64,000 bases of DNA. Source: an uncultured Dehalococcoidales bacterium (GTDB lineage Bacteria; Chloroflexota; Dehalococcoidia; E44-bin15). Position 1 is the first letter of the stretch, and every line of letters begins with the position of its first letter. Both the position numbers and the translations under genes were made by a program. Under the pieces are notes generated by a model, which did not search any database, was not told the origin of the DNA, and saw only the letters and a program-made list of their open reading frames with translations. The stretch spans positions 34,465-98,464 of the forward strand of contig CAZYOO010000001.1 of the NCBI GenBank assembly GCA_964649185.1. The letters are read 5' to 3'. This document shows, one piece after another, positions 12,273 to 36,487 of the stretch.

Positions 12273-12346
12273 TGGCTGGGGAACCAGGATTCGAACCTGG
12301 GCTTACAGATCCAGAGTCTGTCGTCCTACCGCTAGACGATTCCCCA
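12273..12346 (-). tRNA. tRNA-Gln (anticodon CUG)
   Basis: The reverse complement folds as a 74 nt cloverleaf (TGGGGAA-TC-GTC…; anticodon loop CTCTGGA; T-arm CCAGG-TTCGAAT-CCTGG; CCA encoded). It closely resembles E. coli tRNA-Gln. Confidence 0.9.
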
Positions 12347-12364
12347 GCGTGGCAGTAATAATAT

Positions 12365-12574
12365 TTATTTTCTAAGCTTCCTGTCCGCCTCCGCTTCCTC
12401 CGTCGGCTCGGCGGCTGGCAGGCCGGACAGGCCGCAACACCCCGGGCTGCCGCATATCATCAGCGGGCGCTCGATGAAGCTTTCACACCCCTGCACCTTA
12501 CTCTCCGCCGTCAACCTGCCGTGCAGGCTGCACTCCACAGGCGCATTGAAATACATGCACAGTTCGCAATACAT
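12365..12574 (-). CDS. Hypothetical small Cys-rich protein (69 aa); possibly spurious
   Basis: An ORF between gltX and tRNA-Gln with pattern C3-x2-C6-x8-C15-x2-H18 plus C30/C41/C46/C47. Its 3' end is AT-rich and overlaps the likely tRNA-Gln promoter. Confidence 0.25.
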   Translation of the reverse strand: MYCELCMYFNAPVECSLHGRLTAESKVQGCESFIERPLMICGSPGCCGLSGLPAAEPTEEAEADRKLRK

Positions 12575-12615
12575 CCGATCACCCGTATCAAGATTAAATC
12601 AGCGGAACGAGGTTG

Positions 12616-14097
12616 TCAATCCTGTAACTTATCCACCGCCGCCGTAATGCGATTGAGGCACCGTCCCCTGCCCAGCACCTCCATCGTCTGGAACAGCGGC
12701 GGCGCCGCGGTGCGGCCGGTGACCGCCACTCTCAGCAGGCCGAACAACTGCCCAGTCTTCAATCCCAGCTCCTCAGCCAGAAGGCGTAGTATGCTCTCCA
12801 TCTCATCGGCATCGAATGAGCAATCCTTCAGTCGTTCCTTGGATATATCGAGCGCTTCTGCTACCTTTGCCTTATCCAGCCCCTTCACCAGCAGCGACTC
12901 GCGGTCGTAGTCAAGTTCATCGGCGAAGAAGAATTCGGCCTGTTCCGGTGCGTCGCTCAGCAGCTTCACCCGCTCGTAGATCAGCGGCGCGATGCGGTTC
13001 AAGTATCCTCGATCGAGGGGGCGCTCGACTGTCTGGGGAAGACCCGCTTCCAGGAACGGCAGCGCCCGCGCGGTGAACTCCTCGATGCCTTTCTCTTCGA
13101 CGAGAAGGCGCATGTAAACGCCGTTCATCCAGTCCAGCTTCTCATGGCTGAAGACAGCCGCTGTCTTGGAGACGCCTTCGATGGTGAAGTGCTTGATCAG
13201 GCCTTCGCGGTCGATGATGTCGGTCTTGTCATCCAGCGCCCAGCCGAGGAGGGTGAGGAAGTTCAGCATCGCCTCGGGCAGGTATCCTTTGTCGCGGTAC
13301 TCGGTAAGCGATGTTGCGCCGTGCCGCTTGCTCAGCTTGGACTTGTCCGGCCCCAGTATCATCGGAAGGTGGGCGAAAATCGGCGGCTCCCAGCCAAACG
13401 CCCTGTACAGCAGGACGTGCCGCGGGGTGGATGAGAGCCACTCATCGGCACGCATGATGTGGGTGATACGCATGAAATGGTCATCGACGACATTGGCAAG
13501 GTGATAAGTGGGATAGCCATCCGACTTGAGCAGCACCAGGTCGTCTAGCTCGCTGTTGGCAAAGGTGATATCGCCGCGGATGAGGTCGTTAAATGTCGTC
13601 TTGCCCTCAAGAGGAGCCTTGAAGCGTATGGTCGGCGTTATGCCCTTCGCCTCCAGCTCCGCCTGCTGCTCCAGGCTGAGGTCACGGCAGTGTCGATCGT
13701 AGCTGCGCATCGACTCCTTGCGCGCTGCCATATCGGCACGCATGGCGGCAAGCCGCTCCGAGGAACAGTAGCATTTGTAGGCGTTTCCGCTATCCAGCAG
13801 CCGGCGGGCGTGCTCATGATAAAGATCGATTCGTTGCGACTGGAAATACGGGCCGAATTCGCCGCCCGCCTCCGGCCCTTCATCCCAGTCCAGCCCCAGC
13901 CAGCGCAGGCTATCCAGAATGGATTCCAGCGCCCCCTCCACCTTGCGCGACTGGTCGGTGTCCTCGATACGCAGGATGAAACTGCCGCCGCTGTGTCGGG
14001 CTAACAGCCAGTTGAACAGGGCGGTCCTGATGTTGCCGATATGGGGGTGCCCTGTCGGGCTGGGGGCGTAGCGCACCCGGATGTTCTCTTCACTCAT
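12616..14097 (-). CDS. gltX: Glutamate--tRNA ligase
   Basis: 493 aa with a HIGH motif (PSPTGHPHIGN) and a KLSKR motif. Confidence 0.9.
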   Translation of the reverse strand: MSEENIRVRYAPSPTGHPHIGNIRTALFNWLLARHSGGSFILRIEDTDQSRKVEGALESILDSLRWLGLDWDEGPEAGGEFGPYFQSQRIDLYHEHARRLLDSGNAYKCYCSSERLAAMRADMAARKESMRSYDRHCRDLSLEQQAELEAKGITPTIRFKAPLEGKTTFNDLIRGDITFANSELDDLVLLKSDGYPTYHLANVVDDHFMRITHIMRADEWLSSTPRHVLLYRAFGWEPPIFAHLPMILGPDKSKLSKRHGATSLTEYRDKGYLPEAMLNFLTLLGWALDDKTDIIDREGLIKHFTIEGVSKTAAVFSHEKLDWMNGVYMRLLVEEKGIEEFTARALPFLEAGLPQTVERPLDRGYLNRIAPLIYERVKLLSDAPEQAEFFFADELDYDRESLLVKGLDKAKVAEALDISKERLKDCSFDADEMESILRLLAEELGLKTGQLFGLLRVAVTGRTAAPPLFQTMEVLGRGRCLNRITAAVDKLQD

Positions 14098-14235
14098 AAC
14101 CGGTCATCGACTGACCCATATTCTAACACCAATGGTAAACGGCCGTCCATGTGACACGAGCGATCGATGCCGGCTTGACCCTTGACAAAGGCCATCGGAC
14201 AATGTAGTTTTAGCTAGGAATCGAAGAGTATCGAT

Positions 14236-15924
14236 ATGAGCGCAGCAGAGGCAGCGGCCCCCTCCGACTTCATACGTAATATTATCAATGAAGACCTCAA
14301 GACCGGCAAGTACGAAGGCCGTGTGCATACGCGGTTCCCGCCGGAGCCCAACGGGTATCTGCACATCGGGCATGCCAAGTCCATCTGCCTCAATTTCGGC
14401 ATCGCCGACCAGTACGGAGGCCTATGCAACCTGCGTTTCGATGACACCAATCCATCCAAGGAAGAGGACGAATACGTCAGATCAATCATCGAAGATGTGA
14501 AATGGCTCGGCTTCGACTGGGAGGACCGGCTGTACTACGGGTCGGACTACTTCGAGCAGATGTATGACTATGCCGTCCAGTTGATCGAGGCGGGCAAGGC
14601 CTACGTGGATGACCTGAGCGCGGAAGAGGTACGGCAGTACCGCGGCACACTGGTGGACCCCGGCAGGGAGAGCCCCCACCGCAATCGGTCGATCGAGGAG
14701 AACATGGACCTGTTCAAGCGCATGAGGGCCGGCGAGTTCAAGGACGGCTCGCGGGTGCTCCGCGCCAAGATCGACATGGCATCGCCCAATATGAACCTGC
14801 GAGACCCGGCCATGTACCGCATATCGCACGCCACGCACCACCGAACCGGCGACAAATGGTGCATCTACCCGATGTACGATTGGGCCCACGGCCTGGAGGA
14901 CTCCATCGAGGGCATCACCCACTCCATCTGCACGCTGGAGTTCGAGGACCACCGCCCGCTTTACGATTGGTTCCTAGAACAGCTGGGCGTTTATCATCCG
15001 CAGCAGATAGAGTTCGCCCGCCTCAACCTGAGCTACACCGTGATGAGCAAGCGCAAGCTCCTGCAGCTGGTGGAGGGGGGATACGTCAACGGCTGGGACG
15101 ATCCGCGGTTGCCGACCATCGCCGGCCTGCGCCGTCGCGGTTACACACCGCAGTCCATCCGCGATTTCTGCGAACGCGTCGGCGTGGCCAAGACCGACAG
15201 CGTTATCGATATAGCGCTGCTGGAGCACTGCATCAGGGAGGATCTGAATAAGCGTACCCCCCGGGTCATGGCCGTGCTGAACCCCCTGCGCTTGGTGATC
15301 GACAACTATCCCGAAGGACTGGTAGAGGACATGGATGCGGTGAACAACCCGGAGGACCCCGCTATGGGGACGCGCAAGGTGCCCTTCTCGCGAGTGCTGT
15401 ATATCGAGCGGGACGACTTCCGCGAGGACCCGCCGGCCAAGTTCTACCGCCTGGCCCCGGGACGTGAGGTGCGGCTGCGATATGCCTATCTGGTGACCTG
15501 CGTGGATGTGAAAAAGGACGAGCGCACCGGCGAGGTAACAGAGCTGCACTGCACGTACGACCCGGAGTCCCGCGGCGGGAACCCGCCGGACGGGCGCAGG
15601 GTTAAAGGCACCATCCACTGGGTGTCTGCTTCCCAAGCGATTGAGGCCGAGGTGCGCCTGTACGACCGGCTGTTCACCGCAGAGAACCCCATGGAGGCTG
15701 TCGGTGGCGAGGGGTTCCTTGGCGTGCTCAACCCGGATTCACTGCAGGTAGTCAACGGTTATGTCGAGCCCAGCCTCGCCGGCACGGCTCCGGGCAGCCG
15801 CTACCAGTTCGAGAGGCTGGGCTACTTCTGCGTCGACTCGAAGGATTTCTCTCCCGATCACCTCGTGTTCAACCGCACCATACCGCTGCGCGATTCGTGG
15901 GCCAAGATCGAGAAGCAGCTTTAG
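14236..15924 (+). CDS. glnS: Glutamine--tRNA ligase
   Basis: 562 aa. [11 protein letters not shown]…[25 protein letters not shown]…[10 protein letters not shown] matches GlnRS rather than GluRS. A VMSKR motif is present. Confidence 0.85.
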
Positions 15925-17853: not shown

Positions 17854-18276
17854 GTGGACCGAGGCACTTATGCACTTCTTATAAAGGTCAGGAACGAAGC
17901 GACATTAACCGTGGGCAAGCTGGGCGAATTCCAGCTCCCTCTCGGTTACTATCTGTATTGCGGCAGCGCGCTCGGCGGCCTAGAAGCGAGGATAAAGCGG
18001 CACCTGAGGCCCGACAAGCGGCTTCACTGGCATATCGACTACCTGCTGCAGTACGCTGAGATAGTGGATGTCTGGTACCTGCGCAACGATCGACGGCTCG
18101 AATGCGTCCTGTGCCGGGAGGCACGTGAACTCTTTGGTGCTAGCGATATCGCCGCCGGCTTCGGCTCCTCGGATTGCCGCTGTACTTCTCACTTGCTCCA
18201 CTGCAAATCGAAACCCTCCTTCGCCGCCTTCAGGAGGAAGCTGCTCAAAAGAGGGTTAATGCTCGTCAGGTGGTAG
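17854..18276 (+). CDS. DUF123/COG1833 GIY-YIG (Uri) superfamily nuclease-like protein
   Basis: 140 aa, GTYALLIKV…GYYLYCGSA…RIKRHL…HWHIDYL. It has a GTG start and a GGAGG RBS. Confidence 0.6.
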   Translation: MDRGTYALLIKVRNEATLTVGKLGEFQLPLGYYLYCGSALGGLEARIKRHLRPDKRLHWHIDYLLQYAEIVDVWYLRNDRRLECVLCREARELFGASDIAAGFGSSDCRCTSHLLHCKSKPSFAAFRRKLLKRGLMLVRW

Positions 18277-18278
18277 TG

Positions 18279-19814
18279 TTACTTAACCTTCGTTTTGCCC
18301 TTGATGTCCTCAATATTCCGGGAGGTACGCTGCACCTCCGCTTTGGCATCCAGCTCTTCGAACACTTTGAGCGCTTCGTTGAGGTTATCCAGCGCTTCAT
18401 CCTTCTCGCCCTTGGCGGCTCGTACCAACCCTATATTGCCCAGAGCGTTGGCCTCGCCCCACTTCCGCCCCAGCTTCCTCTCGATCTCCAGGGATTGCGT
18501 ATAGAGTTCCAGCGATTTGTCCAGATCGCGTCTCAGCAGGTAGATGTTGCCGATGCTGCTCAGGTCTTCGGCCTCACCGGCAAGATGACCGATGTCCTTG
18601 TTTATGGTCAGCGACTGTTTGAAATAACCGAGGGCATTGTCCAGATCGCCCCTTAAGCTGTACATGATGCCGACATTACCCAGGGCGGTAGCCAGAGCGG
18701 CGGCAGCCTCCTCCAGCCGGCGGCTGGTCTCCCTGCCGATCTCGAAGACCTGCTCGTAGAGCTCGAGGGCCTTATCGACCTCACCCTTTCTCCAATAGAG
18801 AACGCCGACGTCTCCGGGGCCTATGCCCGCCCCAATGCGACTGGCTACATCCGGCCGTATCTGGAGCGCGGAATCGGTGCCGCTCAGCACCTCCTCCACC
18901 GCCCTGTCGATAGCCCCCCTGCCATCGCCACGTTCCTCGGGCGCTTCAGCCTTCACTTCCTCAACGACAGGCTCGGGCTCCTCTTCCTTCTCCTCGGCCA
19001 CAGGTTCCTGTTCCGGCTCCGGTTCCGGCTCGGGCTCCTCTTCCTTCTCCTCGGCCACAGGCTCCGACTCGGGCTCCTCTTCCTTCTCCTCAGCCACAGG
19101 CTCGGGCTCGGGCTCCTCTTCCTTTTCCTCAGCCACAGGCTCCGGCTCGGGCTCCTCTTCCTTCTCCTCAGCCACGGGCTCGGGCTCGGGCTCGGGCTCC
19201 TCTTCCTTCTTCGCCCTTGCCGCTTTAAGCTCTGCATCAACCTGTTTCAAGTATCCGGCAACGAGCTTCTCGCTGCCTTTATCTTCAATATCCTTATATA
19301 TCTCGACAGCCTGCTCCATATTATCCAGCGCTGCCTTCAGTTCCTCGTTCTGCCAGTATGCAATGCCCGTGTTGGTGAGTATAGTGGCTGCACCAGCCCT
19401 GTTGCCTATAGCTCTCTCCAGGTTAAGGGCGCTATCGTATAGCTCCAATGCCTGATCGATCTCGCCATTGACGTGGTTTACAAGGCCTAGGTTAGCGGTA
19501 ACGGCTGCGGCCCCCTCTGTATCCCTGGCCTGCTTCGCCGATGATTCAGCCCCGCGGTAGCGGGATGCAGCCTGGTCCATCTCGCCAAGCGCGAAATGGC
19601 AGTTGCCTATCAGCACGAACAGGGCAGCCCTTTCGTTGATGGTCGGATCCAGATCTAGGGTCTTGCGCAGGATATCGATGGCCTCACCCTCTTTGCCCTG
19701 TTCTAAGAGGGTGCTGGCCTTCTTGTAGTTATCCTTCTTCTTTTTATCCGCTGAATTTTCCAGCCCTCCGCTGAAGTGAATGGTTTTGCCCTGCGGAAAT
19801 TCTTTATCAGCCAT
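18279..19814 (-). CDS. Tetratricopeptide-repeat protein with an acidic EEKEEEPEPEPVA tandem-repeat linker
   Basis: TPR motifs occur at both ends, with a central (EEKEEEPEPEPVA)n repeat. The start is chosen at MADKEF (ATG 19812-19814), which has an AAGGGGTGA RBS. Confidence 0.7.
   Translation of the reverse strand: MADKEFPQGKTIHFSGGLENSADKKKKDNYKKASTLLEQGKEGEAIDILRKTLDLDPTINERAALFVLIGNCHFALGEMDQAASRYRGAESSAKQARDTEGAAAVTANLGLVNHVNGEIDQALELYDSALNLERAIGNRAGAATILTNTGIAYWQNEELKAALDNMEQAVEIYKDIEDKGSEKLVAGYLKQVDAELKAARAKKEEEPEPEPEPVAEEKEEEPEPEPVAEEKEEEPEPEPVAEEKEEEPESEPVAEEKEEEPEPEPEPEQEPVAEEKEEEPEPVVEEVKAEAPEERGDGRGAIDRAVEEVLSGTDSALQIRPDVASRIGAGIGPGDVGVLYWRKGEVDKALELYEQVFEIGRETSRRLEEAAAALATALGNVGIMYSLRGDLDNALGYFKQSLTINKDIGHLAGEAEDLSSIGNIYLLRRDLDKSLELYTQSLEIERKLGRKWGEANALGNIGLVRAAKGEKDEALDNLNEALKVFEELDAKAEVQRTSRNIEDIKGKTKVK
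18975..19215. repeat. Five or six tandem copies of a 39-bp (imperfect, 39-45 bp) in-frame coding repeat inside the TPR gene
   Basis: ggctcctcttccttctcctc[a/g]gccaca[g]gctc[c/g]g[a/g]ctcg is repeated head-to-tail. It encodes the Glu/Pro repeats. Confidence 0.8.
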
Positions 19815-20085
19815 CTTAATCACCCCTTGACTAAAAAGCATAGGCACGTATTCTGTCTGCGATAGTGCTGGTGCCTATAAAACTATTTCAGTGCTGCCTT
19901 TCACCTCACATATTAAAAAGTTCATTTATTAGACACAATAACCCAAACTGCCTATTTCAGCAGAATTAGTTATTATAACACATGAAGTCAAGTCTGTCTA
20001 CCCCCACATGCATCCCTCACTCATCTCGCCTCTGATCAACATATCCATATCGACACATATCGAGTCCTTGGATCGGTGGTACCCC

Positions 20086-20589
20086 CTATCGATACCTCTT
20101 GACCTCAAAGCGGTATAGCTTTACCGGCTCATCTGCCGAGATACCTGCCTTGGCACGGCATATCTCGATCTGCTTGGCCACAGTATCCACTCCCTCGAGG
20201 TCGGGAAGCAACAGTCCCCTTCTGCCGACGCTCTCCACGATCACACCGTATCGTTTGGGGTCCAGCCCCCCTATATCGGTTACCGGCTCCGGCCTCGACA
20301 GCACATCGACGCTGTATTCCAGGTCTTTCAATTCATCGTGTGATACCGCCGGGAAACGCGGGTCCCGGGTCGCCGAGCTGATTGCATTGGCAACGATCTC
20401 TTGTGCCACGTTCTCCCTGGCCGGCTCGAAGGTGCCGATGCACCCCCGCAGCATGCCTCCAATCTTCAGCGACACGAATACACCGGCACGCTCCTCCATC
20501 TCCAGCGTAAAGCCCGCAGGCTCAGGTATCTTTCCATCCCTTATATAGCCCTCGATCGTATCCTTCGCCAGCTTAACCAGCGGATGCAT
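20086..20589 (-). CDS. AMMECR1 domain protein (AmmeMemoRadiSam system protein A)
   Basis: 167 aa with the LRGCIGT motif. It is the last gene of a tight three-gene operon. Confidence 0.8.
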
Positions 20590-20593
20590 AGCA

Positions 20594-21403
20594 TCACCCC
20601 CTCTTTATCAGAATGCCGGCATAGCCTACCACGCTGTAGTGGTCACCGGTCACATCGCCGCTTGTCTGATGGCTCACCAGTTCAGCCCCGGTCGCACCCA
20701 TCTGCTTGCAGGCAGATAGCATCACCACCGTAGGGCCATAGCCGCACATCGATATCCTGAATTCGGCGACCCTTCTGATCAGCTCATCCTCATCCAGCCC
20801 CAGTATCGCCTCTATGGCCATATTATCCTTTTCGCTGGCTATATGCTGCGGCTCGTAGTGATTCATATCGCTGCTGGCCATGATCACCGCTTCACGCCCC
20901 AACGCCTTGCAGGCCTCTGCGATACCCTTCCCTATCTCTTTGTAGATATCGCCCGTGCCCTGGGCAAGCACGATGGGAACTATCTTCACGTCTTGCTTGA
21001 AATACTGCAGGAACGGCAGCTGTACCTCGATGGAATGCTCATCCAGATGTGCTACACGGTCCTCTTCCAGAGGGGGAGCCGCCTCCATTATGGCTGTTGC
21101 CAGATCAGAGTCTATCTCTACATCGCCCAGGGGTGTTTGCCATACCCCTTCCGCCATTATGCTGAACGGCCGGCCCATCCCGGTATGGTTGGGGCCCATA
21201 ATAACGACAGTATCCTTTAACAGCACGCGTGAGATAACGGCTCCGGCCACGTGGCCGGAGTACATGTAGCCGGCGTGCGGGGACACCAGGCCGGCTACAT
21301 CCTCTTTAACCGCCCCTTTATCGATCAAATCCTCGATCTTCTGCCTCAACAGGGGGGCAGTGCCGGGATAGAACATACCGGCTACGACGGGCTTCCGTAT
21401 CAT
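20594..21403 (-). CDS. MEMO1-family protein (AmmeMemoRadiSam system protein B)
   Basis: [14 protein letters not shown]…[10 protein letters not shown]… The ATG at 21401-21403 forms an ATGA overlap with the upstream stop. Confidence 0.8.
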
Positions 21404-22431
21404 GTGCCACCCCTCGTGGTGGCGATATTGAGGTCGGCGCCGCAAAAGCCGCACCTTGAACCCTTGATGCCGGCGATATCGATGCTGTACCCCACCCTGC
21501 CGATAACCTTATGGCCGCAAGAATAGCAGACGGTGTTCTCTCCATTGTGCCCGGGGACGTTACCGGTATAGACGAACTTCAGCCCCGCTTGCTTGCCTAT
21601 ATTGTAGGCATGCTCAAGCATCGACACCGGGGTCGGCGGTATATGCTGCATCTCATGCTGGGGATAGAACCGGGTGACGTGCCACGGCGTCAACTCGCTC
21701 AGCCTCTCACGGATCCAGGTTGCCAGACCCTCGAGTTGCTCATCGTCATCGTTCATCGAGGGCATGATGTTGGTCACCACTTCCACATGCATCCCCCATT
21801 TGTGCATTGCCCGCTCGGTCATATCCAGTATACCGCGCCAATGCGCTATCCGGGCCAGGTCGCGGTACAGTTCGTCGGAGAAGCCCTTAACATCCACACA
21901 GTAACCGTCGAGGTAGGGGCCGATCATGTCCAGGGCTTCCTGCGATAGATATCCGTTGGTCACGTATACCGTATAAAGGTTATGCTTTTTGGCCAGCTTA
22001 GCCGATTCGAGGGTGTACTCGAACCAGACGGCCGGCTCATTATATGTCCATGCGATGCCCTGACAGCCCTCACGCTTTGCCAGTTCCACGGCATCCTCAG
22101 CAGGGATCACGCGTGACTCCCGTTCGATTGCGGAGACGTCGGTGCAGGCGATCTGCCAGTTCTGACATCCCCTGCAGTGGAAATTGCAGCCCCACGTCCC
22201 CATAGAGAATACACGGCTGCTGGGGTGGAAATGGAACAGCGGCTTCTTCTCGATGGGGTCAACCGCAATTGAGGACACCTCGGCGTAGTTCAGCGAATGC
22301 AGTACTCCATCGACGTTACGGTACATACTGCATACCCCGGACTTACCCGGTGCAATCTTGCAGCGCCACTGGCAGGTGTTGCACTGCACCTTGGAGCCAG
22401 CGAGCTTCTGATAGAGCAGTGCCTCTCTCAT
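21400..22431 (-). CDS. AmmeMemoRadiSam system radical SAM enzyme
   Basis: 343 aa with the CNFHCRGC radical-SAM cluster motif and an N-terminal C-x2-C-x3-C motif. It sits immediately upstream of the Memo-like gene. Confidence 0.8.
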   Translation of the reverse strand: MREALLYQKLAGSKVQCNTCQWRCKIAPGKSGVCSMYRNVDGVLHSLNYAEVSSIAVDPIEKKPLFHFHPSSRVFSMGTWGCNFHCRGCQNWQIACTDVSAIERESRVIPAEDAVELAKREGCQGIAWTYNEPAVWFEYTLESAKLAKKHNLYTVYVTNGYLSQEALDMIGPYLDGYCVDVKGFSDELYRDLARIAHWRGILDMTERAMHKWGMHVEVVTNIMPSMNDDDEQLEGLATWIRERLSELTPWHVTRFYPQHEMQHIPPTPVSMLEHAYNIGKQAGLKFVYTGNVPGHNGENTVCYSCGHKVIGRVGYSIDIAGIKGSRCGFCGADLNIATTRGGT

Positions 22432-22560
22432 TGCCAGCTATCTCCCACAACCCCATTCTAGCACATTCGCCGTTAGGCGCAACCCCGCACCCGCTTGACT
22501 GCCGATAACCCGAATTGCTAGACTGGATTAGCGGTATACATACTTGCAAAGCTCAGTGAC

Positions 22561-25246: not shown

Positions 25247-25786
25247 CTATTCGCTCTTGGCGGGCGGGGCCTTTTTGTTGGGCTTGGACGCCTTCTTAGC
25301 CTTCGGCGCCTTGGGCTTCTTCGCTCCACCCTCTATGGCCTTCTTCGCCTTGATCTCCACCTTCTTGGGCTTCTCCACCTCAGTCTTTGGAATGGTCAGG
25401 GTGAGGACGCCGTCCTCGAAGGTGGCCTCTGCCTTATCGCCCCTGATTGCCTGAGGCAGGGTGATGGCCCGGTAGTAGCTGCCGTAGTGGCACTCCCGGC
25501 ACAGGTAGTCCTCCTCCTCCGATTTCTCTTCCTGTTTGGTCTCGCCCTTGATGGTCAACGTGTTCCCCGAGATCTTGATGTCCACATCCTCGGGGTTGAC
25601 ACCGGGCAGTGCGGCCTTCACCACCACCTCTTTAGCCGTCTGATACATGTCCAGCGAAGGCTGCGCCAATTCGCTCCATTCCATCAGAGGCCTCGAAGGA
25701 CGTACATAACCGCCCTCCAGCAGACGATCCATGGCCTGCCGCATCCCCACCAGCTCCCGGAACGGATCCCAGCGTATCAGGTTCAT
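25247..25786 (-). CDS. Hsp20/alpha-crystallin small heat-shock protein with a Lys/Ala/Pro-rich C-terminal tail
   Basis: ACD core (…DVDIKISGNTLTIKGE…ATFEDGVLTLTIPK) plus a tail KPKKVEIKAKKAIEGGAKKPKAPKAKKASKPNKKAPPAKSE. Confidence 0.85.
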   Translation of the reverse strand: MNLIRWDPFRELVGMRQAMDRLLEGGYVRPSRPLMEWSELAQPSLDMYQTAKEVVVKAALPGVNPEDVDIKISGNTLTIKGETKQEEKSEEEDYLCRECHYGSYYRAITLPQAIRGDKAEATFEDGVLTLTIPKTEVEKPKKVEIKAKKAIEGGAKKPKAPKAKKASKPNKKAPPAKSE

Positions 25787-25816
25787 TCCTTATCACCTCC
25801 TTCCTTAACCTGGATT

Positions 25817-25845
25817 AATATAACATAATAACACCAATTTGTCAA
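25817..25845 (-). promoter_or_regulatory. Near-consensus σ70-type promoter for hsp20 (-35 TTGACA, 17 nt spacer, -10 TATATT); GGAGGT RBS
   Basis: Minus strand TCTTGACAaattggtgttattatgtTATATT…GGAGGTgataaggaATG. Confidence 0.55.
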
Positions 25846-25852
25846 GACTTAT

Positions 25853-25867
25853 TATCAGCCTATGATA
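25853..25867. promoter_or_regulatory. Inverted repeat TATCA-N5-TGATA between the divergent -35 boxes; candidate operator
   Basis: TATCAGCCTATGATA. The two -35 hexamers (TTGTCAA / TTGACAA) themselves form a larger inverted repeat. Confidence 0.3.
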
Positions 25868-25876
25868 GGTATACTA

Positions 25877-25906
25877 TTGACAATGATGTAATATATACCT
25901 TATAAT
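25877..25906 (+). promoter_or_regulatory. Consensus σ70-type promoter (TTGACA-N18-TATAAT) for the J-protein/hspR/clp operon
   Basis: TTGACAatgatgtaatatataccTTATAATggttg seen directly. Confidence 0.6.
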
Positions 25907-25927
25907 GGTTGTAGTTGGGTGACTGAT

Positions 25928-26875
25928 ATGGCAGTTAAAAATTTTTACGACGTGCTGGGAGTCAGTAAATCGGCCTCTGATAAGGATATAAAGCAGGCCT
26001 ATCGCAGGCTGGCTCGTAAGCACCACCCCGACGTTAATCCGGGGGATAAATCGGCGGATGCGAGGTTCAAGGATATCAATACCGCCTACGAGGTCCTCTC
26101 CGATCCCAAGAAGAGGAAGGCCTATGACAAGTACGGGGATAACTGGCCCTACGCCGACCAGCTCGACGCACAGCAGCAGGGGCCTTTCGGCGGCTTCTCC
26201 GGTTTCTCCGATTCCGCCAAACATTCAGGCCAGAGGCAGGGCACACGGGTGCAATTCGTCGATTTCGGTGACCTGGGTGACTACAGTGACCTAAGCGATA
26301 TCTTCACCACCTTCGCCCGTGGCGCCGGCGCCAGGGCTGCACCCGAGAGGCCACGCCGTGGCAGGAATGTTGAATACCCCACCGAGGTAACGCTGGAGGA
26401 GGCGTACCACGGCACCACCAGGGTTGTTGAGGATGTGCTGGCGCACCGCCTGGAGGTCAAGGTGCCTCCGGGTGTCAAGGATGGCTCACGCGTAAAGGTC
26501 AGCGGAAAGGGCGAGCCCGGCCCGGGGGAAGGGCCGCGGGGGGACCTGTACCTCGTAGTATCGGTGAGGCCGCATTCCGTCTTCGAGCGCAAGGGGAACG
26601 ATATCTATGTCGATGTCTCGGTTCCCCTAGCCGACGCCGTGCTCGGCGGAGAGGCCAGCGTCCCGACGCTGAAGGGGAAGAAGCTCTCCCTCAAGGTACC
26701 GCCGGAGACGCAGAACGGGAGGGCGTTCCGTTTGAAGCAGCAGGGGATGCCGGTTATGGGGGATACCGCCAAGGGAGACCTGATCGCCAGGATAAAGGTG
26801 GTGATACCGGAGAACCTTACACAGCGCGAGAAAGAGCTTTTCGAGGAGTTACGGAGGCTGCGGCCCAATGGATAA
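25928..26875 (+). CDS. DnaJ-class co-chaperone with a J domain and DnaJ C-terminal domain but no zinc finger (CbpA-like)
   Basis: [33 protein letters not shown] has the HPD motif. ATG 25928 is preferred because it lies downstream of the predicted TSS. Confidence 0.8.
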
Positions 26876-26889
26876 TCGGTTGAGGCGAG

Positions 26890-27267
26890 GTGAAAGAAAT
26901 GAACATAGGCAATTCTGAACCCTGCTATGTGATCAGTGTGGTGGCCAGGATGCTCGGCGTGCATGCACAGACCCTGCGCTATTACGAGAAGGCGGGGCTG
27001 ATCGAGCCGTCTCGTTCCAAGGGCAGGGTGCGCCTGTACTCCAACAGGGATATCGAGAGGCTGCGCCAGGTGAGGACGCTGATGAACGACCTGGGGGTCA
27101 ATCTCGCCGGCGTGGAGGTAATCCTGCGTTTGACCGAGCGCATCGAATTGCTCGAACAGCAGATGGCGGAGACCGAGCGCGAGATAGAGCGCCTGCGGGA
27201 GGCTGGCCTGTGGCCCAAGAGGATGCTGCCGCCGAGCAGGCGCCGCCCTCAAACGGGGAGGAAGTAA
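26890..27267 (+). CDS. hspR: MerR-family heat-shock repressor HspR-like
   Basis: 125 aa. VISVVARMLGVHAQTLRYYEKAGLIEPSRSKGRVRLYSNRDIERLRQVRTLMNDLGVNLAGVEVIL is an HspR-type HTH plus coiled coil. Confidence 0.75.
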   Translation: MKEMNIGNSEPCYVISVVARMLGVHAQTLRYYEKAGLIEPSRSKGRVRLYSNRDIERLRQVRTLMNDLGVNLAGVEVILRLTERIELLEQQMAETEREIERLREAGLWPKRMLPPSRRRPQTGRK

Positions 27268-27319
27268 CAATAATTAAACGATTGATGATATGGCGAGATA
27301 TGATTGCACAGGGAGTTGA

Positions 27320-29749
27320 ATGATGAGACAGGACAGATTCACTGAACAGGCACAGGAAACGCTGGCCCGCTCCCAGGAGTTGGTGCGCAGCTATAAACAC
27401 AGCCAGTGGGATGTGGAGCACATCCTGCTCGCCATGCTGCAGCAGCCCAAGGGGCTGACCGGCGATATATTGGAGAAGCTGGGGGTGGAGGCCGGTGAGG
27501 TGCGCAGCCGTGTGGAGGAAGTGCTGGCGCAAAGCCCCAAGGTATCATACGAGGGGACAACGTTTTACGCCACGCCGCGCACAGCAAGCCTGTTGGAGAA
27601 CGCCTCTGCTGAGGCCGATCGGCTGAAGGACGAGTTCGTCGGCACCGAGCACATCCTGATAGCCATGGCGGCTGAGCGTGATGGGGCTGCTTCGCAGATA
27701 CTGCGCGATTTCGGCATAGAGCAGGAAAACCTGTATTCGGCGTTGCGTGACATCCGCGGCAGCCAACGGGTAACCGACCCCCATGCCGAGAGTAAATACG
27801 GGGCGCTGGAGAAGTACAGCCGCGACCTTACTATGCTTGCCGAGTCGGGGAAACTGGATCCGGTTATCGGGCGTGAAAAGGAGATCAAGCGGGTGATGCA
27901 GGTGCTCACCAGGCGCACCAAGAATAACCCGGTAATCATCGGCGAAGCGGGCGTGGGCAAGACCGCTATCGTGGAGGGTCTGGCCCAGATGATCGTGAGC
28001 GGCGATGCCCCCGACTCGCTGAAGAACAAGCGGGTGATAGCCCTCGACATGGGGGCGCTGGTCGCCGGCGCCAAGTTCCGCGGCGAGTTCGAGGAACGTT
28101 TGAAGGCGGTGATGGATGAGATCCGCCAGTCACAGGGAGAGATCGTCCTGTTCATCGACGAGATGCACACCGTGGTCGGAGCCGGGGCCGCCGAAGGGGC
28201 CATCGACGCCAGCAACATGCTCAAACCGGCCCTCGCCCGCGGCGAACTGCAGTGCGTGGGGGCGACCACGCTGGACGAATACCGGCAGCACATCGAGAAG
28301 GATGCCGCGCTGGAACGGAGGCTGCAGCCCGTATATGTGGACGAGCCCAGCGAGGAGGACACCGTCGAGATGCTGCGGTCGCTGCGCCCCCGATACGAAG
28401 CGCACCACAAGATCCAAATCACCGATTCCGCCCTGGAGGCAGCGGCGCAGCTGAGCCATCGCTATATATCCGACCGACAACTCCCCGACAAGGCGGTGGA
28501 CCTTATAGACGAGGCGGCGGCAAAGTTGAGGATAGATACCGAAAGCGCCCCCAAGAATGTCAAGGACCTGGAGAGGAAGCTTAACCAGCTGCTCCGTGAG
28601 GAGGAGGCAGCGGCCGAGAAGCAGGATTACGAGCGCGCCTCCCGGCTCAAGATGGAGCGTATCCCGGTAGAACAGGAGTACAACACAGCGAAACAGGCAT
28701 GGCTCCGGGAGGAAAAGATCGACAGCGTGGTGGATGAGGAGGATATCGCCGATCTGGTGTCCAGCTGGACCGGCATCCCCGTGTCCCGCATGCTGGAGGA
28801 GGAGACCGATAAGCTGCTCCAGATGGAGGACAGGCTGCACCAGAGGATCATCGGGCAGGAGGATGCCGTCAGGGTGGTCTCCGAGTCCATCCGGCGGGCG
28901 CGGGCCGGGCTCAAGGACCCGCGGAGGCCGATCGGCAGCTTCATATTCCTCGGCCCTACCGGCGTGGGCAAGACTGAGCTGGCGCGCGCCCTTGCCGAAT
29001 TCCTGTTCGATGACGAGGAAGCCATGGTGCGTCTGGATATGTCGGAGTACATGGAAAGGCACACCGTGTCGCGGCTCATCGGAGCCCCGCCGGGCTACAT
29101 CGGCTATGAAGAGGGGGGGCAGCTGACCGAGGCGGTGCGCCGACGGCCGTATAAAGTGATTCTCCTCGATGAGATGGAGAAGGCTCACCCCAACGTGTTC
29201 AACATCCTGCTCCAGATACTGGAGGACGGGAGGCTCACCGACGGGCATGGCAGGACCGTTGACTTCAAGAACACGGTGGTGATTATGACCTCGAACCTGG
29301 GCACGGAGGAATTCGAACGGAATTCTATGGGTTTCTCTAAGGAGCCGAAGGGTGAGATGGAGCAGCGGAAGCGTGCCATCGAGGAAGCATTGAAGAAGAC
29401 ATTTCGCCCCGAGTTCCTCAATCGCCTCGACGAGGTGGTGATATTCAAGCCCCTCACCGAGGAGCAGATCAACCTTATCGTCGATCTGATGCTGAAGGAT
29501 ATCCAGAAGCGTCTCGAGGAGCGCAGGATAACGGTGGAATTGACGGAGGAGGCGAAGGCGCAACTGGCCAAGGAAGGCTTCGATCCCACGTTCGGGGCCA
29601 GGCCCCTGCGCCGCACTCTTCAGCGCCGTATCGAGAACCCGCTGTCGACCAAGATACTGCAAGGGGAATTCAAGGAGGGCGACCACGTTGTGGTCGGCAC
29701 GGGGGCTGAAGGATTCACCTTCTCGGCCAAACGCAAGAAGGGAAAGTAG
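27320..29749 (+). CDS. Clp/Hsp100 AAA+ chaperone ATPase with two NBDs and a short UVR-like middle domain; ClpC/ClpB family
   Basis: 809 aa with two Clp N-repeats, Walker A GEAGVGKT and GPTGVGKT, and a linker of about 85 aa between the NBDs ([32 protein letters not shown]), which is shorter than a canonical ClpB M-domain. Confidence 0.85.
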
Positions 29750-35029: not shown

Positions 35030-36487
35030 CTATTCCCCCAGCCTCTCTTTCAATAATTCAGTAACCACAGCGTGATTGGCGCGCCCCCTTGTCTCCCGCA
35101 TCACCTGCCCCACGAGGAACTGGAGCGCCTGTTCCTTCCCCTGTCTGTAATCAGCGACCGCTTTACCGTTCGCCGCTATCACCTTATCCACCGCATTCCC
35201 TATCTCCCCGGCATCGCTTATCTGGGTAAGGCCCTGATCATTGACGACCTCAACAGCGCTCTTCCCGCTGCTGAACATCTCCTCGAACACCGATTTAGCC
35301 GTAGGCACACTTATTTTCCCACTATCCACCATCTTTATCAACTCCACCATCAGGTCGGGTTTGACCTCTGATGCCTGTATCTCGGTATCGGTAGCGTTCA
35401 GCAGCCTGGTGAACTCCCCCAGCATCCAGTTGCTTACCGCTTTAGCCAGTCCCATGCGCTTCGACTCCTCTAGTAAATCAAGGCACGCCTCGAAATAATC
35501 AGCCGTCGCCTTGGACAGGGTGAGCAGGCCGGCATCGTAATCCGTAAGGCCATAATCGGCCATGAACCTTCCCCTCCTTGCCTCGGGGAGCTCGGGCAGC
35601 CGTCCCCTGATCTCCTCCACCCAATCCCGCTCGAATACCATAGGCGGCAGATCCGGCTCGGGGAAATAGCGGTAATCATGGGCGTACTCCTTACTGCGCT
35701 GCGACACCGTTATCCCCTTGTCCTCCACCCATCCCCTGGTCTCCTGCACCAGCCGCTCCCCGGCATCGACCGCCCTTCGTTGCCGCTGCTCCTCATACTG
35801 CAGGGCGCGGTACACCGCCTTGAAGCTGTTCATATTCTTGATCTCGACCTTCACCGAGTACTCTCCGCCCACCGGCCTGATGCTGATATTGGCGTCGCAG
35901 CGAAAGCTGCCCTCCTCCATATTGCCGGTGGACACACCGAGGAACTGGAGGATGGCGCGCAGCTTTATAAGGTACTGCCTGGCCTCCTCCGGCGAACGCA
36001 GGTCGGGCTCCCCCACTATCTCCATAAGGGGCACGCCAGCGCGGTTTACGTCCACCAAGCTGTACGATTCGCCTCGGGTCGGCGAGCGATGGGTCAGCCT
36101 GGCCGTATCCTCCTCCAGGTGCACCCGCGTTATAGCTGCCCTGCGTTTCTGGCCGTAGGCCTCGATATCCAGCCAGCCGCCGACACCCACCGGTTCGTCG
36201 TACTGTGATATCTGGTACCCTTTCATCAGATCGGGGTAAGGGTAGTTCTTGCGGTCGAACTTGGTGTATTCGGGTATGGTGCAATTCAGCGCCAGGGCGG
36301 TCATCGCCGTGTATTCCAGGGCCTTGCTGTTGATGACCGGCAGCACGCCGGGCATACCCAGGCACACCGGGCATACGTGGGTATTGGGCTCCGTGCTGGC
36401 GTAGTCCGCGCTGCAGGTACAGAACATCTTGCTCTCCGTGAGCAACTGCGCGTGCACCTCCAGCCCGATGACCGTCTCGTAATCCAT
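35030..36487 (-). CDS. gatB: Asp-tRNA(Asn)/Glu-tRNA(Gln) amidotransferase subunit B
   Basis: 485 aa, [26 protein letters not shown]…. Confidence 0.9.

Follow-up and report, generated by a model that had tools for sequence, protein, structure and literature searches.

The AMMECR1 domain was connected in 2007 with a radical S-adenosylmethionine (SAM) enzyme and with a 'ring-opening dioxygenase', fusions included, and its RGChG and DxRa motifs were proposed to form an active site with the Cys thiol projecting into a deep cleft (Balaji and Aravind, 2007). The same work predicted an uncharacterized modification of RNA bases through this conserved Cys. A 2014 paper reported links of archaeal AMMECR1 to NFACT and to a PIN RNase (PIN/Zn-ribbon), and 'recently described Memo-Ammecr1 systems' are mentioned in a passage of a 2020 paper with reference to Burroughs et al., 2019 (J Biol Chem 294:10211). 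The NCBIfam models of the three-component set, which goes by the name AmmeMemoRadiSam, are typed 'hypoth_equivalog'. Here we analyze such a set in a 64-kb stretch of DNA (contig CAZYOO010000001.1, positions 34,465 to 98,464; hereafter the window), which almost certainly carries a genuine and intact AmmeMemoRadiSam operon on the chromosome of an uncultured Dehalococcoidia (Chloroflexota) bacterium. The three genes, which are consecutive and co-directional in the open reading frame (ORF) table and the reverse-strand sequence, with outer limits 20086–22431, are as follows.

21400–22431, minus strand: radical SAM enzyme (AmmeMemoRadiSam system), 343 residues; TIGR04337 and Pfam Radical_SAM
20594–21403, minus strand: Memo, AmmeMemoRadiSam system protein B, 269 residues; TIGR04336, NF001987 and Pfam Memo
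20086–20589, minus strand: AMMECR1, AmmeMemoRadiSam system protein A, 167 residues; TIGR04335 and Pfam AMMECR1

Family membership was decided by the curated NCBIfam cut-offs (220 bits for TIGR04337, 26 for TIGR04336, 99 for TIGR04335 and 295 for NF001987), and all are exceeded. The radical SAM enzyme scores 280.9 bits against TIGR04337 (E = 1.2e-83, profile positions 4–329 of 349), Memo 320.7 bits against TIGR04336 and 305.1 bits against NF001987, the MEMO1 equivalog model, and AMMECR1 129.4 bits against TIGR04335 (E = 8.5e-38); E-values of the family matches of the three proteins run from 1e-38 to 1e-96, well outside anything that chance would give. Pfam agrees, with 63.7 bits for Radical_SAM (PF04055, cut-off 29.5), 260 bits for Memo and 155 bits for AMMECR1. 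The runner-up NCBIfam models for the radical SAM enzyme are glycyl-radical activases at 20–39 bits, against cut-offs of 130–500; TIGR02493 (PFLA) reaches 39.3 bits of a required 231.75, in a match beginning at profile position 23, and TIGR02494 30.9 of 174.35. NCBI, JGI, ENA and Logan already contain the protein itself. Those of its relatives that bear a name come from Chloroflexota/Dehalococcoidia metagenome-assembled genomes, where the annotation reads 'AmmeMemoRadiSam system radical SAM enzyme'; in JGI, many homologues go under 'pyruvate formate lyase activating enzyme', which is a name at the level of the superfamily and not of the family.

The genes are tightly packed. The radical SAM stop codon (21402–21400) and the Memo ATG (21403–21401) share an ATGA overlap at 21400–21403, and a 4-nt gap at 20590–20593 separates the Memo stop from the AMMECR1 start (TGA tgct ATG). 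The longest Memo ORF in the mechanical list (20594–21454) opens with a GTG; the true start is evidently the ATG at 21403 (MIRKPVVAG…, 269 residues), because Memo is called as 269 residues on seven contigs and a fused homologue (locus L008) starts MIRSPVV. These seven independent metagenome contigs encode an identical radical SAM protein and have the same gene structure. Shine-Dalgarno-like purine runs precede all three starts (GGGAGA at 22446–22441 for the radical SAM gene, GAGGGGTGG and AAGAGGGGG). The first-pass annotation, made from the sequence alone, had given this gene structure exactly to the base, and its assignment to the AmmeMemoRadiSam triad is borne out in that none of the three scores falls below its cut-off; the motifs that it named (CNFHCRGC, an N-terminal Cys cluster and LRGCIGT) were all located, as described below, and its description of the function as unknown agrees with the literature searched.

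In the radical SAM enzyme, the CX3CX2C motif CNFHCRGC occupies residues 82–89 (Cys82, Cys86 and Cys89). An N-terminal four-Cys motif (C17-x2-C20-x3-C24-x9-C34) lies upstream, and a second one, absent from the first-pass annotation, lies at the C terminus (C302-x2-C305…C327-x2-C330). Among 46 diverse family members (35–53% identity), Cys17, Cys20, Cys24, Cys34, Cys302, Cys305 and Cys327 are invariant and Cys82, Cys86, Cys89 and Cys330 are conserved in at least 90%; in 65 closer homologues all 11 Cys residues are invariant. Given this conservation in both sets, the two extra motifs are family signatures. A D58-P-I-E-K-K-P…H67 stretch is also strongly conserved in the family.

A confident AlphaFold2 (AF2) model of the enzyme (pLDDT 85.8, pTM 0.88) opens at the N terminus with a β-rich module of about 60 residues, continues as a radical SAM barrel and ends in a β-hairpin tail. 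Foldseek comparison of this model with the PDB places Escherichia coli pyruvate formate-lyase activating enzyme (PFL-AE) first (E = 2.5e-12, target-normalized TM-score 0.76–0.78), followed by QueE (1e-7) and viperins (5e-7), and a sequence search of the PDB found no solved structure closer than the PFL-AE class. With PFL-AE and other glycyl-radical activases (PDB 3C8F, 3CB8 and 8FO0; TIGR02493 and TIGR02494) the window enzyme has in common the partial-barrel fold, the CX3CX2C motif and a local sequence match across its residues 124–252. It differs in falling far under the family cut-offs, in its approximately 60 additional N-terminal residues with four invariant Cys, in its C-terminal CX2C…CX2C tail and in lacking DGxGxR, with no glycyl-radical enzyme found nearby. 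The DGxGxR sequence before the cluster motif is the substrate-loop signature of glycyl-radical activases. No DG.G.R motif occurs anywhere in the protein; a search in which its N-terminal half was aligned to PFL-AE to place the loop gave no usable match. Nor did a glycyl-radical enzyme turn up in the gene calls up to 10 kb from the system or in the ten other large window ORFs scanned. The enzyme, as judged from sequence and model, appears to work as a hydrogen-abstracting radical SAM enzyme of the PFL-AE structural class and not as a glycyl-radical activase, because it has no DGxGxR and the family carries D58-P-I-E-K-K-P…H67 in its place.

Eight of the best 150 representatives of the radical SAM family (P0128, P0141, P0151, P0161, P0202, P0215, P0227 and P0250) contain an intein of approximately 350–470 residues. 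In P0128, the sole one to which Pfam was applied, a LAGLIDADG domain is present as well. The insertion site lies directly before the third Cys of CX3CX2C (…CNFxCxx|C-intein-N|CQNW…), so that this cluster-binding Cys is also the +1 nucleophile of splicing and the radical SAM site stays interrupted until then. The window enzyme has no intein; the equivalent site is just before Cys89, at approximately 22167–22165.

The Memo protein keeps the motifs PHAGY (His43), GPNH (His73), DEHS (121–124), SSDMNH (Asp179, His182) and MCGYGP (Cys220). His43, His73, Asp179, His182 and Cys220 correspond to the His/His/Asp/His/Cys site residues of the MEMO1 literature. Human MEMO1 (PDB 3BCZ and 7KQ8) belongs to the same fold family and its five motifs (PHAGY, GPxH, DEHSIE, SSDxxH and CG) align with those of the window protein in the comparison with 3BCZ, although the two sequences are only distantly similar (E = 7e-13); when the last 79 Memo residues were searched against PDB sequences, to align them with human MEMO1, nothing relevant came back. 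Eukaryotic MEMO1 acts in receptor and in redox or metal signaling and is not known to have a radical SAM partner. A glycyl radical on the Memo SVVGYAG sequence, which loosely resembles RVxGY, was considered and rejected: VGY occurs in 17 of 18 Memo or LigB-type sequences linked to the radical SAM enzyme, and since the radical SAM-Memo fusion P0189 has VVDY, the Gly is not an obligatory radical site.

In AMMECR1, the RGChG motif is LRGCIGT (residues 47–53, Cys50) and the DxRa motif is DPRF (76–79). LRGCIGT is identical in all 12 linked relatives, and DxR[F/Y] is likewise present in all 12 (DPRF in 11, DYRF in one). The domain and both motifs are common to the archaeal proteins MM0484 (1ZQ7, matched at E = 1.6e-23), PH0010 (1VAJ, to which the window protein also aligns) and ST0229 (1WSC); the window protein differs from these in being shorter (167 residues versus 207–230) and operon-linked to a radical SAM enzyme. 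In a 2026 study, the Pfam AMMECR1 domain (PF01871) was the strongest domain marker of anaerobic bacteria, found in 50.7% of anaerobes versus 3.4% of aerobes (PMC13386939), an enrichment that fits an oxygen-sensitive radical SAM partner.

To collect homologues of the radical SAM enzyme, the representatives of 50%-identity clusters were searched exhaustively with HMMER (6856 clusters at E ≤ 1e-3, 1188 at E ≤ 1e-30), and the best 150 were inspected for fusions. Nine of these are fused to Memo and/or AMMECR1, in six domain orders: radical SAM-Memo-AMMECR1, AMMECR1-radical SAM-Memo, radical SAM-AMMECR1-Memo, Memo-AMMECR1-radical SAM, radical SAM-Memo and AMMECR1-radical SAM. Such Rosetta-stone fusions indicate functional coupling, in which the three domains work together. 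That the locus is an AmmeMemoRadiSam operon whose three products act jointly in one pathway is, in our judgment, highly probable.

A scan of one genome per GTDB species found the family in at least 595 species, and the best 80 of these confirmed species matches were kept as loci; these come from many bacterial phyla and from most archaeal lineages, with cultured Methanosarcina, Methanolobus, Methanococcoides and Thermovorax among them. Iterated profile searches detected a partner gene beside the radical SAM gene in 14 of the 80 loci, and in 10 of the 44 that are flanked by at least 2.5 kb on either side. The ORFs lying up to 5 kb from the radical SAM gene were also all clustered across the 80 loci. 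Once its own shadow ORFs were set aside, no conserved neighbor emerged in that range except the Memo/LigB/AMMECR1 cluster; ten loci, mostly of Desulfobacterota, share a class I methyltransferase-like gene, which looks like lineage synteny, and the adjacency of the gene downstream of the window system, which encodes a tetratricopeptide repeat (TPR) protein, is not conserved in other lineages.

Among close Chloroflexota relatives, AMMECR1 lies 3′ of the radical SAM gene in all nine loci with downstream sequence (L007–L014 and L016), and the order is always radical SAM, middle gene, AMMECR1. The middle slot is variable. In L008 and L012 it is taken by Memo, which forms one protein with AMMECR1; in L007 (9032–10351), L009 and L014 the domain fused to AMMECR1 is instead a class III extradiol-dioxygenase (LigB/HpaD-like) one; and in L010, L011 and L013, which have AMMECR1 only, the slot is empty. 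In L016 (8001–10469), a single stop-to-stop ORF of 833 residues encodes radical SAM, LigB and AMMECR1 domains in succession. A LigB/HpaD-like-AMMECR1 fusion also replaces Memo in L048 and L065. On this comparison, the radical SAM-AMMECR1 pair appears to be the constant core, and the Memo-superfamily module to be interchangeable among close relatives.

These data also bear on two further statements of the first-pass annotation. The triad had been called a 'partner-switching' one, and the middle component is indeed swapped in evolution, between Memo and LigB-type domains among close relatives; partner switching as a defined mechanistic property does not hold. The value placed on a compact copy as an experimental handle was overstated, as the host is uncultured and members of the family number in the thousands, among them cultured strains in which the genes are linked, for example Thermovorax subterraneus DSM 21563 (L048). 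The three-gene set is already known and routinely annotatable, and the window copy is an ordinary one.

The chemistry of the system may be pictured as follows. A [4Fe-4S] cluster on Cys82, Cys86 and Cys89 of the radical SAM enzyme would cleave SAM reductively to give a 5′-deoxyadenosyl radical, which would abstract hydrogen from a substrate that the partner proteins (AMMECR1) present to it. As the constant partner, AMMECR1 most likely holds the substrate in its cleft, with the invariant Cys50 acting as a covalent catalyst or a radical relay. Memo, with its predicted His/His/Asp/His/Cys metal site, would perform or assist a metal-dependent step, for which a LigB-type extradiol-dioxygenase domain could substitute. 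The two additional four-Cys motifs of the radical SAM enzyme may bind zinc, in the manner of a zinc ribbon, or auxiliary Fe-S clusters.

Two homologues carry redox modules. In P0206 (952 residues), the radical SAM domain is fused to a flavodoxin/FAD/NAD diflavin reductase, which fits the need for a one-electron donor, and P0259 (1055 residues) combines it with a DsbD_2 membrane domain and with FMN_bind and Fer4_5 modules. Both fusions may give the cluster an electron source of its own.

A nucleotide or RNA base is the target that we tentatively prefer, because it was predicted in the literature and because the next-closest folds, QueE and viperin, act on nucleobases or nucleotides. Several observations weigh against this target or against the interpretation as a whole. 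The closest fold, PFL-AE, acts on a protein and not on a nucleotide. The isoelectric points of the window proteins (6.5, 5.1 and 5.5, acidic to neutral), like those of most linked AMMECR1 domains (4.9–6.0), argue weakly against direct binding of polyanionic RNA. In other lineages, as sampled by similarity rank, the radical SAM gene is mostly solitary: it has neither Memo nor AMMECR1 beside it in 34 of the 44 well-flanked loci, where 2.5–8 kb were read on each side, and its linkage to the partners is therefore lineage-specific. Eukaryotes keep Memo and AMMECR1 and are not known to have this radical SAM enzyme, so that the partners can function alone. AMMECR1 was listed in 2019 among the top-priority uncharacterized archaeal families and is still uncharacterized in a preprint of August 2026, and no biochemical or genetic study of any prokaryotic triad member was found in the literature searched.

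Because PFL-AE is the closest fold and domain fusion is frequent, a residue of a partner protein may instead be the target, which we regard as rather improbable. The radical SAM enzyme would then be a protein-directed activase like PFL-AE, installing a protein radical or a post-translational modification on AMMECR1 (at Cys50) or on Memo and so making the partner the working enzyme. The distance between PFL-AE and the next solved folds (2.5e-12 versus 1e-7) favors this proposal, as do the secondary NCBIfam matches, which are solely to glycyl-radical activases, the occurrence of the fusions in many domain orders, as would be expected for an enzyme and its protein substrate, and the invariance of AMMECR1 Cys50, reported to be exposed in the cleft. 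It is opposed by the missing DGxGxR and the scores far under the activase cut-offs, and by the fact that the only glycyl-radical-like motif found, VVGY of Memo, is not universal; the eukaryotic AMMECR1 and Memo are also not known to need the radical SAM enzyme. Overall we think such an activase unlikely. A more specific form, to which we give distinctly less credence still, has the radical SAM enzyme act directly on the cleft-exposed Cys50 to generate a thiyl radical or a modified Cys, so that AMMECR1 would be a hitherto unrecognized, anaerobically activated protein-radical enzyme of archaea and anaerobic bacteria. As part of the same long shot, Memo or its LigB-type counterpart would be an interchangeable metal cofactor module, and eukaryotes would have kept the partners and replaced the activation step.

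The LigB swap and the acidity of the proteins point to a lipid, an isoprenoid or another small molecule as target, for which we see a limited chance. The Memo clade has reportedly been tied, in the work of Burroughs and colleagues, both to nucleotide bases and to the modification of isoprenoids. The system as a whole would then modify such a molecule or a cofactor, with the Memo or LigB-type domain performing metal-dependent chemistry on the radical SAM product, a scheme that we consider doubtful. It accords with the acidic window proteins and with the exchange of Memo for a class III extradiol-dioxygenase-like domain, whose family acts on small aromatics. However, no lipid, isoprenoid or aromatic-pathway gene is conserved beside the system in the 80 loci, the window neighbors are housekeeping genes, and oxygen-dependent ring cleavage is implausible in the anaerobes in which AMMECR1 is enriched. 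That the enzyme is an ordinary activase of pyruvate formate-lyase, a glycyl-radical enzyme, merely lying beside Memo and AMMECR1, as the JGI names and the resemblance to the PFL-AE fold might suggest, can be set aside with near certainty, since the TIGR02493 and TIGR02494 scores refute it, TIGR04337 is passed, fusions with Memo and AMMECR1 exist, and neither the ten other large ORFs nor the genes called within 10 kb include a glycyl-radical enzyme.

The two intergenic regions that bound the operon are the following.

22432–22560, minus strand: 129 bp 5′ of the radical SAM gene, common to the divergent coaE; candidate promoter, read from the sequence
19848–20085, minus strand: region 3′ of AMMECR1; promoter-like site of the next gene and a weak terminator-like hairpin

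In the first, TTGCGC (22482–22477), a 16-nt spacer and an extended −10-like TGc-TAGAAT (22463–22455; TAGAAT at 22460–22455) form a tentative promoter for the radical SAM gene. The consensus promoter scan did not list it, as its −35 hexamer matches at 3 of 6 positions, which is under the threshold. In the second, the same scan found a strong promoter-like site ahead of the TPR gene (TAGACA, 17 nt, TATAAT; 20000–19972), and a weak terminator-like hairpin lies at 19963–19948; the region 3′ of AMMECR1, marked by this promoter-like site, is the likely end of the operon. Rfam and tRNA scans gave no structured RNA in or beside the operon, and no second Memo, AMMECR1, LigB-type or radical SAM gene of this family occurs within the window.

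On one flank lie the divergent coaE, an ADP-forming acyl-CoA ligase-like gene and genes for NUDIX, Hsp20, DnaJ, a MerR-type regulator and ClpB; on the other lie genes for the TPR protein, DUF123, LspA and RluD. EF-G, PurF, PurH, GatB, UvrC, RecJ and ThrRS are encoded farther out. By their assignments, these neighbors are housekeeping genes.

The TPR gene (18279–19847, minus strand) is interrupted at 19024–19193 by a highly acidic tandem repeat, EEKEEEPEPEPVA, with a 39-nt period, 4.4 copies and 93% identity. Its product is called as 517 residues on one metagenome contig and 515 on another, and its length thus differs between samples. The DUF123 protein (140 residues; 17854–18276, plus strand) is encoded convergently with it. 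A few kilobases from the operon, Hsp20, DnaJ, the MerR-type (HspR-like) regulator and ClpB make up a heat-shock cluster (25247–29749). Elsewhere in the window, a tRNA-Gln(CTG) gene adjoins the genes of two class Ic synthetases, a GluRS-type and a GlnRS-type enzyme, and the GatB amidotransferase subunit is also encoded (12273–15924 and 35030–36487 for these features together); direct and indirect routes to amidated aminoacyl-tRNAs may coexist in the host.

Conservation of AMMECR1 and Memo extends from archaea to humans, and they are linked to human disease, yet neither has an established biochemical activity; no better clue to their chemistry is available than the operon that they form with a radical SAM enzyme in prokaryotes. 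To this the window copy adds little, being a standard member from an uncultured host when cultured archaea and bacteria carry the same system. The comparative points extend the observations of 2007 and 2019: AMMECR1 is constant, Memo is swapped or dropped, and two family-invariant additional four-Cys motifs are present in the radical SAM enzyme.

Among described systems, the TYW1 and TYW3 steps of wybutosine synthesis likewise pair a radical SAM enzyme with an enzyme of the RAGNYA fold whose C-shaped cleft holds a catalytic Cys (Balaji and Aravind, 2007), but the radical SAM enzymes have no family-level homology and the likeness is one of analogy only. The LigB/HpaD-like-AMMECR1 fusions of Chloroflexota and Bacillota occupy the same slot after the radical SAM gene and have the same AMMECR1 domain; the window differs from them in having a true Memo, by its NF001987 score. 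The match to AmmeMemoRadiSam itself is complete: all three components are present, co-directional, tightly packed and above the cut-offs, and their Cys and active-site motifs are those of the family consensus. Nothing substantive sets the window apart from that family. Its Memo and AMMECR1 are separate genes, in contrast to the fused ones of L008 and L012, and other close relatives carry a LigB-type domain in place of Memo, or AMMECR1 alone; the window arrangement is best described as a split-gene variant of that of its closest relatives.

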